30,140 bases of DNA from a virus (lineage: Duplodnaviria > Caudoviricetes): positions 1-30,140 of IMG/VR virus record IMGVR_UViG_3300032330_000331; one strand, written 5' to 3'. The notes under the pieces were generated by a model that ran no database searches, was not told the origin of the DNA, and worked only from the letters and a program-made list of their open reading frames with translations. Of this stretch, positions 6,527-22,731 are shown piece after piece. A program made the position numbers and the translations under genes. Numbering within the stretch: position 1 is the first letter of the stretch; each line of letters begins with the position of its first letter.

Positions 6527-7045
6527 ATGAAACATTTATTTAAATCGTTGGCTCAGTTCCAACAAGAAGTACCAGTGATCCACAAAGCAACACAAGGCTA
6601 TGGATATTCTTACTCGGATTTACCTAAGATTTTTAGTGTAATAAATCCACTATTAAAAAAACACGGATTAGGATTTACTCAGTTAATTAACGAAGGGGAT
6701 GTCTTGACGATTCTTTTCCACGTAGAATCAGGAGAACAAATCCAAAGCTCAACTACTATTCCTCAGAACGTACAACTGAAAGGAATGAACGATTTCCAAG
6801 TTCTAGGTTCTGCAATTACTTACATTCGCAGATATGCGATTAGTGCAATGCTAGGATTAGTAACAGATAAAGATACTGATGCAGGAGGAGAGCAAGTAAA
6901 AAACGAACCAAAGAAACAAACGCTAGACGCTAAGAGATTCCAAGATGCAGTCAAAGCACTAACAGAAGGAAAGATAACACGTGAATCTTTAGAAGCTAAG
7001 TTCACGTTAACAGAAGGTCAAATTGATATACTCAACGCACTATGA
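6527..7045 (+). CDS. erf: ERF-family ssDNA annealing protein
   Basis: YGYSYSDL, PLLKKHGL, HVESGE, QVLGSAITYIRRYAISAMLGLVTDKDTDA signature; start placed after the promoter. Confidence 0.9.
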   Translation: MKHLFKSLAQFQQEVPVIHKATQGYGYSYSDLPKIFSVINPLLKKHGLGFTQLINEGDVLTILFHVESGEQIQSSTTIPQNVQLKGMNDFQVLGSAITYIRRYAISAMLGLVTDKDTDAGGEQVKNEPKKQTLDAKRFQDAVKALTEGKITRESLEAKFTLTEGQIDILNAL

Positions 7046-7713
7046 AAGTTAGATGCTCTGCTATAGGAAAAATTATGTCAGCACCTCGTAATAAATCGGA
7101 GGTGCTTTCACAGACTGCAAAGACTTACATTCACGAGATGGTGCTGCAGGATAAATACGGAATCAGAAAAGAGTTCAGCTCACGTTACACAGACAAAGGA
7201 AATGAAGTTGAGAACGAATCAATAAACTTAGTCAATGAAGTGTTAGACGTTGGATTTATTTACAAGAATGAGGAGTTTTACGAGAATGATTGGATTACAG
7301 GAACACCTGACGTAAACACGGAAGAAGTATTGTTAGATGTTAAAAGCTCTTGGGATGGTTCTACCTTTCCGTTTTTTGAAACTGAGATACCTACAAAGGA
7401 CTATTACTACCAACTGCAAGGTTATATGTGGCTTACAGGTAAACAACAGTCAATGTTATGTTACTGTTTAGTTGATACTCCTGAGTTAATGGTTGAGGAT
7501 GAGATTAGAAGAACTCACTGGAAACTTAATCTAATGGAGGAAAGTTTGGATTTAAGAGACGAGATTCAGAAGAAGCATATCTTTAGCCACATTCCAAAGA
7601 ACAGACGTGTGAAGGTATTCTTTGTACAGAAAGACGAAGCAGTTATAGAACGAATCAAAGAGCAGGTAGAGCTTTGCCGAGAGTATTACAACACCTTAAT
7701 CAATTTCCTATGA
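7042..7713 (+). CDS. YqaJ/lambda-exonuclease-like PD-(D/E)XK nuclease
   Basis: RCSAIGKIM, KGNEVE, GTPD, DVKSSW, YYYQLQGYMWLTG; adjacent to ERF. Confidence 0.85.
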   Translation: MKVRCSAIGKIMSAPRNKSEVLSQTAKTYIHEMVLQDKYGIRKEFSSRYTDKGNEVENESINLVNEVLDVGFIYKNEEFYENDWITGTPDVNTEEVLLDVKSSWDGSTFPFFETEIPTKDYYYQLQGYMWLTGKQQSMLCYCLVDTPELMVEDEIRRTHWKLNLMEESLDLRDEIQKKHIFSHIPKNRRVKVFFVQKDEAVIERIKEQVELCREYYNTLINFL

Positions 7714-8189
7714 ATACAAATGCTTGTTGTAATTGTGGTTATATTGGTAAATTAGAAAACCATCATGTTGTGCCAAAAGTTATGGGAGGTGCTTTTACAG
7801 TTCCATTATGTGTAAAATGTCATGGATTAGTTCATGGAAGAGATTTTGTTAAATCAAGAAATTTACAATTAATAGGTATTGAAAAAGCAAAACTAAATGG
7901 TAAATATAAGGGTGGGAATAGAAAACCTGAAACATTTGATAATTGGATTAAAAAGAAATATATAAAAGAAATATGTGTTTATAGAATTAATACTAATTAT
8001 TCTTATAGAGACATTTCAGAAACTGTTGGTTGTTCATTAAGCACAGTTCAAAAAGTTTACAAATTAATTTCATATGATGTTGCTGCTGCTATTGCAAAAG
8101 AACAAACAATAAATATTGAAAAAGTATTAAAAAAAGAAATTTTAATAAATAGATATCAAAATAAAATTAATAAATTAACTCAAATATGA
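7710..8189 (+). CDS. HNH endonuclease with C-terminal resolvase-like arm and HTH
   Basis: CCNC..ENHHVVP..GG..VPLCVKCHGLVH; GIEKAKLNGKYKGG; YSYRDISETVGCSLSTV. ATG 7710 gives ATGA overlap. Confidence 0.8.
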   Translation: MNTNACCNCGYIGKLENHHVVPKVMGGAFTVPLCVKCHGLVHGRDFVKSRNLQLIGIEKAKLNGKYKGGNRKPETFDNWIKKKYIKEICVYRINTNYSYRDISETVGCSLSTVQKVYKLISYDVAAAIAKEQTINIEKVLKKEILINRYQNKINKLTQI

Positions 8190-8413
8190 ATCAACTAATC
8201 GAAGACCAAATAGTCATTCGTGTTCTAAGCCGATTTGCCGAACGTTCGCAAGTAGGAATAGCCAAGTACAACACAACGCTAGAAAGAACTGATTTAAGCA
8301 CGTTAGAATGGCTTACACACGCACAAGAAGAAGCAATGGACTTTGTACTTTACTTGGAACGACTGAAAGACGAATTTAAAACAAAAGATGTGTCACGAAC
8401 AATGCCTAAATAA
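8186..8413 (+). CDS. Small phage protein, possibly all-alpha NTP-pyrophosphohydrolase (MazG-like) fold
   Basis: RSQVGIAKYNTTL..WLTHAQEEAMDFVLY with an EExxD acidic motif; the ORF is solid, the function tentative. Confidence 0.55.
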   Translation: MNQLIEDQIVIRVLSRFAERSQVGIAKYNTTLERTDLSTLEWLTHAQEEAMDFVLYLERLKDEFKTKDVSRTMPK

Positions 8414-8419
8414 ACACGG

Positions 8420-8587
8420 ATGAAAATAACAATAGAACAATACGAACACACGGTAACACATGAAGTGCCATTTAACGATGTAGACTTAGACGAAGCATTA
8501 AGAATGTGTGAAGGACTATTAAAAGCAATTGGATATGTATTCAGCGGAAACCTTCAAATATTAGATGAACAAATCAATCAAGAATAA
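8420..8587 (+). CDS. Hypothetical protein, 55 aa (MKITIEQYEHTVTHE...), not in ORF track
   Basis: ATG 6 nt after previous stop; open to TAA. Confidence 0.7.
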   Translation: MKITIEQYEHTVTHEVPFNDVDLDEALRMCEGLLKAIGYVFSGNLQILDEQINQE

Positions 8588-8608
8588 GTGGCAATTTTTA
8601 CCACTTAT
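8584..8608. repeat. Inverted repeat upstream of mini-gene array
   Basis: ATAAGTGG-N9-CCACTTAT. Confidence 0.6.
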
Positions 8609-8666
8609 CTTAAATAGAAATGATATTAATTAAGTAAAACACGGATAAATTTAAACAACAAGAACA

Positions 8667-8879
8667 ATGAAAAAGAAACAAGTAGCAACTAAAGAACAAG
8701 CAAAAGAATTAGTAGATAAATTTAATTTTAGTTGCAGAGAATGTGATAATGCTATATTATCAGCACAAGTAGCAGTAGATACAATTATTGAAAGTGATTG
8801 CTTACATATGCCCGAAGATAGATTGTATTGGAAATCAGTAAGAAAAGAACTTGATATTTTTAAACAACAAGAACAATGA
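8667..8879 (+). CDS. Cassette ORF 1, 70 aa
   Basis: Starts at ATG of repeat 1 and reads through repeat 2 as KQQEQ*. Confidence 0.75.
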   Translation: MKKKQVATKEQAKELVDKFNFSCRECDNAILSAQVAVDTIIESDCLHMPEDRLYWKSVRKELDIFKQQEQ

Positions 8880-9055
8880 AAGTGATATATGAACAAGATT
8901 TAGGTATGGAAACCTACGCAGAAGTAAGAGTAACTTCTAATAAAAAGTATGTAGTATTTGTAACACCTATGTTTGGAGGTGATTTCTTTCAGTACACACA
9001 AGATGAATTTGACACTTTAGAAGAAGCGAAAAAATTTGTTAACTCAATTACTTAA
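8876..9055 (+). CDS. Cassette ORF 2, 59 aa (MKVIYEQDLGMETYAEV...), not in ORF track
   Basis: ATG in repeat 2; stop is the TAA of repeat 3. Confidence 0.75.
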   Translation: MKVIYEQDLGMETYAEVRVTSNKKYVVFVTPMFGGDFFQYTQDEFDTLEEAKKFVNSIT

Positions 9056-9067
9056 ACAACAAGAACA

Positions 9068-9211
9068 ATGAAGATAGTTAGCCTTTACCCAAGCAATGAT
9101 GTATACCAAGTAGTAAGTGAAGATGAATCAAGTGTTCACTTTCAAGGTAGAAAGGAAGATTGCATGAGATATTTACTTGAGCAAGAACTAATTAAAAACG
9201 GAATAATCTAA
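9068..9211 (+). CDS. Cassette ORF 3, 47 aa (MKIVSLYPSNDVYQVV...), not in ORF track
   Basis: ATG in repeat 3; stop is the TAA of repeat 4. Confidence 0.75.
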   Translation: MKIVSLYPSNDVYQVVSEDESSVHFQGRKEDCMRYLLEQELIKNGII

Positions 9212-9223
9212 ACAACAAGAACA

Positions 9224-9328
9224 ATGAAAGAGAAAACACTAGCAATCCTATTTCTGCTTTTTGCACTATCCGTTTTTTGCTACGGATTCCTACATTTTGT
9301 AGGTTATATATGGCGAGGAGCATTTTAA
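9224..9328 (+). CDS. Membrane peptide, 34 aa (MKEKTLAILFLLFALSVFCYGFLHFVGYIWRGAF)
   Basis: ATG in repeat 4; one hydrophobic helix. Confidence 0.65.
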   Translation: MKEKTLAILFLLFALSVFCYGFLHFVGYIWRGAF

Positions 9329-9353
9329 ACGTAAACAATTAAATATATATACA

Positions 9354-9509
9354 ATGGAAAAACAAACATTTGAACAAGCAGTAAAGCCATTAATGAAATG
9401 GTTAAGTGAAAACAAAAATCCACACACTACGGCAATAGTTACAAGTAATGTATCTGAATTAGTAGAAGGTGTTGAAGTAGTAAACACAGATGAATTTTTA
9501 ATTGATTAA
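9354..9509 (+). CDS. Hypothetical protein, 51 aa (MEKQTFEQAVKPLMKWLSEN...), not in ORF track
   Basis: A-rich leader, ATG to TAA, fills the gap on the coding strand. Confidence 0.7.
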   Translation: MEKQTFEQAVKPLMKWLSENKNPHTTAIVTSNVSELVEGVEVVNTDEFLID

Positions 9510-9520
9510 ATTTAAACAAA

Positions 9521-9760
9521 ATGGAAAACAAGTTAAACACGGGAGCAATCTTCAAAAACACGAACAAGAAAGCGGATAACCACCCAGACTACAAAGGAAA
9601 AGTAAACGTAAATGGCAAAGAAATGGAAGTTGCGTTATGGGTTAAACAAGGTAAAGCAGGATCATTCTTCTCTGCAGCATTCTCAGAACCATACGTTGCA
9701 CCTGAGACAACAGAAAGAAGACCAGTAAGTGATGATATGGATGATGACCTTCCCTTTTAG
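9521..9760 (+). CDS. Small ssDNA-binding-like protein (DUF736-like)
   Basis: GAIFKN..HPDYKG..ALW core and SSB-type acidic tail DDMDDDLPF. Confidence 0.7.
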   Translation: MENKLNTGAIFKNTNKKADNHPDYKGKVNVNGKEMEVALWVKQGKAGSFFSAAFSEPYVAPETTERRPVSDDMDDDLPF

Positions 9761-9798
9761 AAAGGCAACCAAAAACTACCTTTTTACGTTATAGTAAT

Positions 9799-10293
9799 AT
9801 GAAAACAAAAAATTGTATTGTATGTAATGTTGAGAAGGTAGTTTCTGAATATTATGTTCATCGTAAAATGACTGATGGACACTTAAATAAATGTAAAGAT
9901 TGTTGTAAATTACAGGCAACTGAAAGGCATCATAGATTATATAAAGATGAATCATTTGTTGAAAGCGAAAGAAAACGAGGGCGTGAAAAATATCAAAGGT
10001 TGAATTACTTAGAAAAGTATAGAAATATAACTGATGATAAACCTTGGATGAAAACGCAGATATATAAAAATTTACATAGATTAAATAAATGTGAAAAAGG
10101 TTATGAGTTACATCATTGGAATTATAATTATTTAAATGATGTGTTAGTTATGACTATTTCAGAACATAGAAAAATCCATAGAAAAATGAAATTAGATAAA
10201 GAAAAAAAAATATTTACTTACGATGGAATGTATTTAGATACATTAGAAAAACATAAAGCGGCAATAGAAAAAATACTTTCTAATGTACATTGA
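9799..10293 (+). CDS. Zinc-finger plus degenerate HNH endonuclease-like protein
   Basis: CIVC..EK..EYY..DGHLNKCKDC; ELHHWNY...EHRKIH. Confidence 0.7.
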   Translation: MKTKNCIVCNVEKVVSEYYVHRKMTDGHLNKCKDCCKLQATERHHRLYKDESFVESERKRGREKYQRLNYLEKYRNITDDKPWMKTQIYKNLHRLNKCEKGYELHHWNYNYLNDVLVMTISEHRKIHRKMKLDKEKKIFTYDGMYLDTLEKHKAAIEKILSNVH

Positions 10294-10483
10294 CGAGGGT
10301 GAGTTGCGTAAGCAATTAGTGAAGTTGTTACGTAGCAAAACACGAAATCAAATCGTGCAGGACATTAAATCAAAAACAGGAAAGTTTCACCAATATCAAA
10401 TAGACAAATTCTTGCAAGGCAAAGACATCACACTAAGCACTGCAATCAAATTAGACGAATATTTACTGCGTGAAAGAATGTAA
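10283..10483 (+). CDS. Small putative HTH/Cro-like protein
   Basis: QYQIDKFLQGKDITLSTAIKLDEYL resembles an XRE C-terminal half. Confidence 0.55.
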   Translation: MYIDEGELRKQLVKLLRSKTRNQIVQDIKSKTGKFHQYQIDKFLQGKDITLSTAIKLDEYLLRERM

Positions 10484-20605: not shown

Positions 20606-22731
20606 TGGCAGAAAAGAAAGTAGTTGAATTAAATGTACAAGCAGACTTAACACCTTTAAAAACCCAATTAAAACAAGCACAACAAGAGGTACAGGTTTTA
20701 TCTGATAAGTTTGGTGCAACATCTAGAGAAGCAGTTGAAGCGGCAAAGAAAGCTGCAATACTTAAAGATAGAATTGGAGATGCGAAAGCCTTAACTGATG
20801 CGTTTAATCCGGATGCAAAGTTTAAAGCTTTGTCAGGTTCACTTACAGGTGTAGCAGGTGGTTTTTCTGCTGTAACAGGTGCTATGGGTGCATTTGGAAC
20901 ACAAAGTGAAGATGTAGAGAAAGCATTATTAAAGGTGCAGTCAGCAATGGCATTAGCATCAGGACTACAAGCAGTAGGAGAAAGCGTTGATAGTTTTAAA
21001 CAACTAGGAGGAGTTATTAAAGACTCTTATCAAAAGTTACTTTTATTTATTGCAGGACAAGAAACACAGGCAGTAGTAGCAACTGAGGTAGCAGTAGCAA
21101 CTCAAGTTGAAGCAGTAGCAACAGAAGAAGCTACAATTGCGCAAATAAGTTTAAATACTGCAATGAAAGCTAATCCAATTGGAGTAGTAATTGTTGGAGT
21201 AGTTGCATTAGGTGCTGCAATAGCAGGACTTATTTATGCAATGGGTGATCATAATGAAGCAGCAGATAAACAAGCAGAAACAAATAAAAGATTAGCAGAA
21301 CAAGCAAAAGAACAACGTGAAAATATTGCTAAAGAATCAGGAGGATTTGCAACATTAATATCACGATTAAAAAATACTAATGCAGGTACTAAAGAACGTG
21401 AAGATTTGATTAAAAAAATCAATGGTCAATATGGTACTACTTTAAAAAATATTAAAGACGAAGCTAAATTCCAAGAATCACTGAATAAAGAATTAGCATC
21501 TTACTTAGAATATCAAAAAGCAAAATATACACTTCAAAAAAACGAAGATTTAATTGTTAAAAATTTATCTAAACAAGATGAAATTCGTGCAAAAATAGCT
21601 AAATCACAAAAAGATGAAGAAACGGCTAGAAAAGAAATGGCTGCAAGTGGTGGTTCTAATGCTATTATGTTACGAGCAATTAATTCACAGGTTGAACTTC
21701 AAGCTCAATTAGAAAAAGAACTTGCTAAAGCAGAAAAAAGATTTAATGCTTATGGTTCAGCAGCAAATACAGCAGCAAATAACGTAGACAAGATTACGAA
21801 TAGTGGAACTAAGTATGTTGAGCAAAATGATAAAGTAGTTGAATCTACTGAGGAAGTAATTAAAACAGAAGAGGAGTATGTTTTAACTCAGCAAGATTTA
21901 ATGGATAAAATAAATGCCATTAAACAAGCAAACTACTTAAATAATTTATCTGAGAATGATAAAGAAATTGCACTTGTAAATGATAAATATGCAGAACTTG
22001 AAAATTCAGCAAAAGGGAACGCAGAATATTTAGCAGATATTGAACTTGCTAAAATGAATGAAATCAATGATATTAATTTAAAATATCAGGATTTAGATTA
22101 TAAACAAAAAGAAGAATGGAGATTAAAAACAGAAGAAGCAACTAAAAAAGCAAGCGAAAAAGAAATTGCAGATGCAAAAGCAGTAGCAGAACAAAAGGCA
22201 GCAATTCAACAACAAGGATTAGATGTTGCTATGCAAGGAGTTCAATTAATTAAAGGATTATTCGAAAAATCAAAAGGAGTTCAAAAAGCAGCAGTTATTG
22301 CAGAATCAGCTATTGGTATTGCTAAAATGGTTATTGCAAATAAACTAGCAAACGCAGGAGCATTGGCAACTCCTCAAGCAATAGCCTCAAGTGGTGTATC
22401 AGCTATACCTGTAATAGCAATGAATAATATATCTACAGGAATAGGAATAGCAGCAAACATAGCAGCAACAGCTAAAGCATTAAGAACACTTGGTGGTGGT
22501 GGTGCACCATCAGGAGGAGGAATAGGTGGAAGTGGTGGTGGAAGTGGTGGTAGTGGTGGTGGTGGAACTACAGTTATGTCTCCATCATTTAACGTAGTTG
22601 GTAACTCAGGAATCAATCAACTTGGACAATTACAACAGAAACCAATGAAGGCTTATGTGGTTTCAGGAGATATGTCAACAGCACAATCATTAGATCGCAA
22701 CAGAATAGAAAATGCAACATTAGTCAAATAA
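20605..22731 (+). CDS. Tail tape measure protein
   Basis: 708 aa, Ala-rich helical/coiled-coil, ANPIG hydrophobic segment, Gly-rich linker near C-terminus. Confidence 0.85.
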   Translation: MAEKKVVELNVQADLTPLKTQLKQAQQEVQVLSDKFGATSREAVEAAKKAAILKDRIGDAKALTDAFNPDAKFKALSGSLTGVAGGFSAVTGAMGAFGTQSEDVEKALLKVQSAMALASGLQAVGESVDSFKQLGGVIKDSYQKLLLFIAGQETQAVVATEVAVATQVEAVATEEATIAQISLNTAMKANPIGVVIVGVVALGAAIAGLIYAMGDHNEAADKQAETNKRLAEQAKEQRENIAKESGGFATLISRLKNTNAGTKEREDLIKKINGQYGTTLKNIKDEAKFQESLNKELASYLEYQKAKYTLQKNEDLIVKNLSKQDEIRAKIAKSQKDEETARKEMAASGGSNAIMLRAINSQVELQAQLEKELAKAEKRFNAYGSAANTAANNVDKITNSGTKYVEQNDKVVESTEEVIKTEEEYVLTQQDLMDKINAIKQANYLNNLSENDKEIALVNDKYAELENSAKGNAEYLADIELAKMNEINDINLKYQDLDYKQKEEWRLKTEEATKKASEKEIADAKAVAEQKAAIQQQGLDVAMQGVQLIKGLFEKSKGVQKAAVIAESAIGIAKMVIANKLANAGALATPQAIASSGVSAIPVIAMNNISTGIGIAANIAATAKALRTLGGGGAPSGGGIGGSGGGSGGSGGGGTTVMSPSFNVVGNSGINQLGQLQQKPMKAYVVSGDMSTAQSLDRNRIENATLVK

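Follow-up and report, generated by a model that had tools for sequence, protein, structure and literature searches.

A 20-bp start-stop joint borders variable mini-genes in a 30-kb phage and its relatives

An array of mini-genes in a 30-kb tailed phage

The stretch of DNA analysed here (the window; 30,140 nucleotides) is a whole virus record with a CheckV completeness of 99%, that of a 30-kb tailed phage with terminase, portal and tail genes. Round the array described below lie NinG, ERF, exonuclease (Exo) and SSB genes and a sigma-factor-like gene; the NinG/Rap homologue and the Erf/Exo pair adjoin the array, and the ERF and Exo genes end 0.9–1.6 kb upstream of it. Two further ORFs are probably mobile endonucleases: a GIY-YIG-like ORF (MUG113/T5orf172) at 1086–1559 on the minus strand, and an endonuclease-like ORF at 9799–10293, downstream of SSB. 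Two short motifs are spread very unevenly over the strands of the window, with AAACACG found 25 times on the plus strand against 4 on the minus strand and ACGGA 67 against 4 (raw counts, taken with no null model).

Judged from sequence, the host is probably a member of the Bacteroidota. Two links, both weak, lead there: the nearest cultured match of the exonuclease is in Nonlabens phages, and a Flavobacteriia MAG in GTDB has a 1.2-kb contig bearing the joint and an ORF of the kind found in our pool. Matches to cultured phages are short, confined to ERF/Exo, and fall in Nonlabens phages P12024S/L and one Rhodobacteraceae phage; the joint region of the window has no significant match among cultured phages. 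The locus is laid out as follows.

6527..7713, plus strand: ERF single-strand annealing protein (6527–7045; PF04404, 99.6 bits) and exonuclease (7042–7713); PHROG 155 and 5715
7710..8189, plus strand: ORF with weak HNH/HTH profile matches, in a second, repeat-free insertion slot (ATGA overlaps only)
8186..8587, plus strand: two semi-resident small genes (75 aa and 55 aa) preceding the array; families 0 and 1 among relatives
8584..8608, plus strand: hairpin leader preceding the first joint (fold prediction)
8652..8671, plus strand: joint A copy 1 (TAA...ATGAA; exact 20-mer), starts ORF1
8667..8879, plus strand: cassette ORF1, 70 aa, C-terminal KQQEQ within copy 2; weak match to PHROG 21441 (function unknown)
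8861..8880, plus strand: joint A copy 2 (exact 20-mer), where the TGA of ORF1 overlaps the ATG of ORF2
8876..9055, plus strand: cassette ORF2, 59 aa
9053..9072, plus strand: joint A copy 3 (exact 20-mer), its TAA ends ORF2
9068..9211, plus strand: cassette ORF3, 47 aa, homologues partly chimeric (nucleotide comparison)
9209..9228, plus strand: joint A copy 4 (exact 20-mer), its TAA ends ORF3
9224..9328, plus strand: ORF4, 34-aa hydrophobic peptide (best 19-residue Kyte-Doolittle mean 2.4), typically last in the array
9521..9760, plus strand: SSB-like gene (PHROG 18154), the conserved right border of the variable interval

The array is marked by four exact copies of the 20-mer TAAACAACAAGAACAATGAA, here called joint A, at 8652, 8861, 9053 and 9209, spaced 209, 192 and 156 bp apart. 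With up to three mismatches allowed the window holds five matches, against 0.06 in shuffled sequence; the fifth lies at 22101 and has 3 mismatches. Frame 0 of the joint opens with TAA, frame 1 encodes KQQEQ followed by a stop codon that overlaps the next ATG, and frame 2 has no stop. An earlier note on this DNA had described four identical repeats, each interval between them holding one unrelated ORF (70, 59 and 47 aa) and a 34-aa peptide following the last; positions and spacing were recovered exactly, and the four ORFs have no mutual blastp match at E ≤ 10, for which reason tandem duplication of one gene was rejected. That note's account of the repeat as a double signal holds as well: the ATG of all four ORFs comes from a joint, and incoming ORFs are halted in two frames, ORF1 through KQQEQ-TGA and ORFs 2 and 3 through the first TAA.

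Homologues of these cassettes turn up in other company. ORF1 has relatives of 96% nucleotide identity in locus L159 and 92% in L070, both with different neighbours; ORF2 is matched at 93–94% in five contigs, all with joint A on both sides and with four different upstream flanks between them; ORF4 has seven homologues at 86–96%. Measured against the window copy, over pairs that are not independent, pN/pS is 0.07 for ORF2 (5 pairs), 0.26 for ORF4 (7) and 0.22 for ORF3 (1). Relatives of ORF3 were found solely within the loci sampled here, and protein atlas look-ups of ORF1 and ORF2 returned hypothetical viral clusters only.

The same locus in relatives selected by their exonuclease

We fetched 80 loci by their exonuclease (79–100% identical), so as to avoid selecting on the repeat. 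Counting the window, 57 of the 81 sequences span the interval from Exo to SSB; this interval ranges from 222 to 3,918 bp and shows 46 gene orders among the 57 sequences, some of which are near-duplicate contigs (gene order by an ATG-only gene call). Joint A is present in 42 of these intervals, a second joint (joint B, below) in 10, both in 2 and neither in 3, so that 54 of 57 carry A and/or B. Interval length follows the number of joints (Spearman rho 0.89), and 186 of 188 joint copies in this set are located within the Exo–SSB interval. At the lower extreme, L174 has an interval with one gene and one joint only.

Gene gain at this locus does not need the joint. The slot between Exo and the 75-aa gene (family 0) is filled in 24 of 54 relatives, by 14 different inserts joined through ATGA overlaps only, and repeat-free starts also break often (below). 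The 55-aa family ahead of the array itself begins at joint A in 7 of 35 relatives.

The hairpin leader is matched in 33 of the 81 exonuclease-selected sequences, in none of which a joint lies within 1.5 kb upstream of it. Its loop stands in the opposite orientation in 14 of the 33 relatives (among L157–L236), a pattern as expected of template switching in a stem-loop. At the other end of the interval, the leader of SSB (TAACAATTAAA...ATGGAA; 9328–9360 and 9505–9525 in the window, also L162 and L185) recurs as a duplicate in front of genes that have been inserted immediately upstream of SSB, and it is possible that this duplicate acts as a third joint. Terminal copies of joint A often read AATAG, with the ATG lost.

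Distribution of joints A and B

The exact 20-mer occurs in about 530 IMG/VR stretches from uncultured phages, from which we drew a repeat-selected sample of 131 loci. Within any one locus, all exact copies point the same way. At up to two mismatches (n = 297 copies) the ATG is intact in 287, the ORFs that follow have a median length of 63 aa, and there is no Shine-Dalgarno sequence; for 171 pairs of neighbouring joints, the intervening ORF is closed by the KQQEQ stop in 72 and by the first TAA in 43. Joints are 49–1,006 bp apart (median 212) and the sequence between them is coding. A CRISPR array was rejected on this spacing, on the lack of an Rfam match and on the absence of a cas operon among the 49 ORFs of the window.

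In GTDB the 19-mer of the joint has 25 matches; every one is single-copy, and a host repeat or cellular array was rejected on that account.

Joint B, TAAATCAGAATAAGATG, which reads FKSE and a stop, emerged in the relatives without joint A and is found in about 330 IMG/VR stretches. Arrays built on it occupy the same locus (L200, L204, L226, L227, L230, L233, L188), and mixed A/B arrays exist. The third frame of joint B runs in register into the following start codon, by which N-termini can be lengthened.

Rfam gave no match, and a structured RNA was rejected accordingly. Sequences like the T-loop 3′ ends of tRNAs (GGTTCGAATCC) lie directly upstream of some joints (L013, L022, L030); ARAGORN found 0 tRNA genes in 7 loci, and the tRNA reading was rejected.

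Fit of the joint to translation initiation in Bacteroidota

In Flavobacterium johnsoniae, initiation is stimulated by adenines at −3, −6, −12 and −13, according to the part of the source available (PMC6847099). Joints A and B both carry A at all four positions. Over 379 copies of joint A at up to two mismatches, A−6 is invariant and variation falls mostly at non-A positions; in the same copies the first-codon positions vary 13–18 times each and synonymous A-to-G changes number 0–2, on which a protein-level constraint on KQQEQ was rejected. Among the GTDB matches, the 19-mer starts an ORF of at least 60 aa in 12 of 14 Bacteroidota cases versus 1 of 11 others (Fisher p 0.0002). Joint A is thus likely to be a strong Bacteroidota translation start, and the repeat as a translation-start unit, which had been proposed for this DNA, is borne out as a sequence fit to the adenines of PMC6847099, as far as that source was available, and to the GTDB starts.

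Homology breaks at the joint, and flanks are re-paired across it

In the exonuclease-selected loci, the fairer of the two samples, 482 of 531 pair comparisons lose homology at joint A (pairs non-independent). Expressed per junction, the fraction of stops is 0.87 at joint A (103 junctions) and 0.79 at joint B (16), 0.66 at repeat-free starts in the interval (139 junctions; 1,964 of 2,418 pairs), 0.59 at starts in the upstream core (497), 0.32 downstream of SSB (177) and 0.03 in mid-ORF (439). A majority of comparisons break at 93 of 103 joint A junctions versus 88 of 139 repeat-free interval starts. In the repeat-selected set, made up of the window and 73 of the first 80 loci (7 same-contig overlaps dropped), homology stops in 431 of 467 comparisons at the joint, in 720 of 1,484 at other starts and in 438 of 2,390 at random places. 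Joint A is a hotspot atop strong mosaicism at gene borders, and is not the sole place of exchange.

Flanks on the two sides of a joint are nearly unlinked: 358 junction sequences from all phage loci resolve into 347 left-right pairings, and two or more partners are found for 52 of 53 left flanks and 54 of 56 right flanks observed more than once. In pairs of junctions with the left flank in common, 218 of 235 lose identity no more than 6 nt past the ATG. Of 113 family pairs that co-occur, only one shows a clear inversion of order (L047 versus L039/L066), a duplication at a contig end set aside. As the earlier note foresaw, mini-genes are gained, lost and reordered and the breaks fall at the repeat, a view supported by the 46 orders in 57 intervals, the stop fraction at joint A, the 347 pairings and the inversion; neither fixed content and order nor diverged tandem duplicates, the outcomes named there as counting against it, occurred.

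Exchange also takes place inside genes. In 78 of 165 cassette pairs the match covers one half only, some of these reflecting missed degenerate joints, and 6 cassette families have mixed A/B ends. Many of the half swaps fall at an internal stretch that encodes QAKEMEKEQ; this is where the very large MKTAVEWL-type family, a single cluster with 104 of the 511 ORFs, exchanges its halves (L185, L188, L334, L111, L162, L168).

Re-paired flanks could arise if metagenome assemblers fused unrelated genomes at the repeat; the data are nearly all metagenome contigs, and only 10 of the 347 pairings recur in sequence-distinct versions. Two flanks, however, have 2–3 alternative partners, each in sequence-distinct contigs; at least 31 exact bases are shared by just 3% of joint pairs; and a single k-mer contig, from run X1, covers 7700–10300 without any difference and spans the window array unchanged (this contig is possibly the source of the window). 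We regard assembly artefact as very improbable. Matching shares were small in 19 of 20 read runs; in contigs of four runs, joint-to-joint deletions or circles numbered 0; contigs drop rare variants and could hardly show circles.

Cassettes common to a T4-like phage and small phages

Record G001 (174 kb, complete) has T4 gp23 and RecA-family matches, gives none to ERF or PF00589 and is a T4-like phage; it carries 21 co-oriented copies of joint A in four or five clusters. Over 225 nt, one of its cassettes shares 98.2% identity with a cassette of L188, a locus whose exonuclease is 97% identical to that of the window, and a second is 97.0% identical in nucleotides to one in L072; L188 and L072 are both small-phage loci of the Exo/ERF type. 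Cassettes are thus common to unrelated phage types, the 30-kb group and a T4-like phage. A single joint copy is present in each of four further large records. One cassette family is present at two G001 arrays 53 kb apart, and at a contig end (L001 3402–4492; G001 172641–173731) two cassettes are identically duplicated round a third, through duplication or misassembly.

No ERF match was found in five larger records including G001, two of them complete (a search run without a positive control), and 25 of 73 repeat-selected loci have no ERF, Exo or SSB in flanks of up to 3 kb. ERF as a universal catalyst was rejected on these grounds, G001 having 21 joint copies and no ERF match.

A joint that may double as a crossover site

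On the observed anatomy, variable content, breakpoints and cassette sharing we base the following proposal, to which we give a probability of about two in three: the 20-mer is a translation-start gene joint that doubles as a short-homology crossover site for general phage recombination. The joint ends the upstream gene in two frames and supplies the next ATG; with the same joint between hundreds of unrelated mini-genes, it would offer a crossover point at which whole genes could be lost, gained or reordered. Crossing-over would occur within 20–40 bp of identity, by the phage's own recombinase or by slippage, the candidate recombinases being ERF/Exo in the window phage and the RecA-family protein in the T4-like phage. 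Crossover products would stay translatable, a feedback that may keep the joint uniform. On this view the accessory interval is mosaic throughout and the joint is a hotspot within it, rather than part of a machine dedicated to site-specific exchange.

In the window, ERF/Exo could plausibly catalyse exchange locally. The Erf/Exo proteins of phage D3 equal lambda Red in recombination, and the minimum identity for Red-beta is quoted as 23–27 bp, in the part of the source consulted (PMC3945230). Exact identity between joints is 20–23 bp in the window and has a median of 22 in the pool (40,035 pairs), where 34% of joint pairs share at least 23 exact bases; being at or under the quoted minimum, such identity implies that crossover events would be rare per generation.

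The joint might instead act as a selective filter only, an optimal start/stop unit in genomes where illegitimate breaks can fall at any place but persist only at gene borders. This would explain why repeat-free starts break often in the interval and in the core, why the slot next to Exo fills with ATGA overlaps only and why the same 19-mer starts unrelated cellular Bacteroidota genes, and it fits a joint identity below the quoted pairing minimum. Yet translation needs few adenines only, and the joint is uniform while other starts are diverse (the commonest upstream 16-mer in the loci occurs 135 times, the next 6). The partner is also joint-bearing in 309 of the 423 cases in which homology stops at a joint, majority breaks are commoner at joints than at repeat-free starts, and L174 has a single joint beside its single gene. 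We consider a filter by itself unlikely, and prefer the joint as a crossover site.

Integron cassettes, which depend on IntI, attI and attC, form tandem, co-oriented arrays of promoterless single ORFs in variable order behind a conserved leader. The array resembles them as a co-oriented, variable series of single-ORF cassettes, and differs in having no tyrosine integrase and no attC-like folded site and in exchanging cassettes also in halves. PF00589 was matched in 0 of 5 virus records (the window and four others at least 92% complete; control 14 of 14), and among the 49 window ORFs there is no serine or tyrosine integrase, a variable slot gene giving one weak 'DNA invertase' PHROG match in its HTH region. 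An attC-like fold is absent, the four joints being unpaired or no better than shuffles on both strands; the upstream leader alone folds. Hence the claim that the system is free of an integrase stands, with no PF00589 match in the window and none among its ORFs, and its description as a dedicated, 'integron-like' cassette system is unsupported or overstated, given the missing attC fold, the half swaps, and the breaks at the repeat-free slot and starts.

A site-specific system of integron type could still operate if an unrecognised phage or host recombinase cut the joint and moved cassettes as circles. The joint is near letter-perfect across unrelated phages, all copies are co-oriented, the conserved hairpin leader always precedes the first joint and an order inversion was seen, all of which such a system would account for; it is opposed by the lack of PF00589 in the five records and of any integrase in the window bar the weak invertase match, by a joint that is asymmetric and unfolded on both strands, by the interchangeability of joints A and B, and by the internal half-gene swaps. 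We think this quite improbable; the half-gene swaps and the six families with mixed A/B ends point to general rather than site-specific recombination at the joint.

Comparison with known systems

Lambdoid phages have 'boundary sequences', short sequences shared at gene borders, at which modules are exchanged. As in the relaxed recombination by Rad52-like proteins (Red-beta/Erf/Sak; PMC3945230), short homologies at the borders would allow module exchange here; unlike in the Rad52-like and lambdoid cases, exchange is at the scale of single genes, one standard joint is used in tandem, and identity is at or below the quoted minimum.

The closest described parallel in the parts of the papers available is the PeSL (promoter-early stem-loop) cassettes of the T4-type phages RB49, phi1, PST and nt-1, for which the authors themselves draw the comparison with integrons, propose homologous recombination and demonstrate mini-circles by inverse PCR (PMC2839356; PMC4122927). 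On those parts, both systems have a repeated element that ends at the start codon of small ORFans in a hypervariable region, indels and swaps at the element, and no integrase. By contrast with PeSL as described there, joint A is about 20 bp long with no promoter, stem-loop or Shine-Dalgarno sequence found, it also provides the stop of the preceding gene and links genes in head-to-tail order, and it is common to a 30-kb phage group and a T4-like phage. Mini-circles are a PeSL feature in these sources; joint A arrays are known here from contigs alone. A scan for sigma-70-type promoters gave 9 sites versus 17.8 expected, 0 of them spanning a joint; a Bacteroidota-type promoter consensus has no match at the joints, and no stem-loop or terminator was found within them. 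The best reading of joint A is a promoterless variant of T4 PeSL shuffling, not a PeSL.

The SAS/ESAS of Cluster K mycobacteriophages are 13 bp long, G-rich, dispersed and rare in the host, and a role in translation initiation has been proposed for them in the part of the source available (PMC3203893). Like SAS as given there, joint A is a short asymmetric repeat, mostly in one orientation, directly upstream of starts; unlike SAS, it is an unrelated A-rich 20-mer that does not match the 13-bp consensus GGGATAGGAGCCC, it delimits tandem arrays, carries stops and marks breakpoints, and the portion of the source seen gives SAS no role in shuffling. By analogy with the proposal for SAS, the joint could be bound by a regulator of the phage, a protein or an RNA, through which the mini-genes are co-regulated, with shuffling secondary. 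Repetition, asymmetry, co-orientation and association with starts are shared with SAS as far as that source shows (PMC3203893), and conservation is at the nucleotide rather than the peptide level, as a binding site would have it; but the joint is common to 30-kb and T4-like phages without an evident shared regulator, the unrelated joint B does the same job, and single copies stand at cellular starts. A regulator site seems to us barely credible as the main role, next to a start joint at which crossovers occur.

In the openly accessible literature covered, we found no description of this joint.

Cargo and meaning of the joint-borne mini-genes

The pool of joint-started ORFs comprises 511 distinct ORFs in 231 families, 39 with a hydrophobic segment. 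Pfam matches were obtained for 9 of 231 family representatives: Tad8, thioredoxin, MT-A70, ThyX, HNH, two DnaA-C HTH, DUF7695 and DUF3127; some of the matched ORFs could be resident genes lying where arrays end. An ORF started by joint A at L093:544–777 on the minus strand gives the Tad8 match (61 bits, cut-off 27). Tad8, a type II Thoeris inhibitor, is described as acting on ThsA, in the part of the source seen (PMC13728456). As Tad8 is one match only, it does not show the pool to be mainly anti-defence.

Given the pool and its distribution, joints A (KQQEQ-type) and B (FKSE-type) might form a community-wide plug format, in which several hundred mini-genes, many of them anti-defence, would circulate between unrelated Bacteroidota phage families, possibly as mini-circles, without an integrase. 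We put this forward tentatively, as a possibility we rather doubt; if true, the joint-flanked ORFs would be a catalogue for the discovery of counter-defence proteins.

Unrelated phages likely trade small accessory genes through a common joint. This gives single-gene phage mosaicism a concrete, countable route, in which a 20-bp joint would keep each swap translatable and crosses phage families. The joint is also a sequence tag that retrieves a large pool of otherwise overlooked mini-genes. Through it, two questions become testable: whether selection or targeted short-homology recombination accounts for breakpoints at gene borders, and what roles phage ORFans play.
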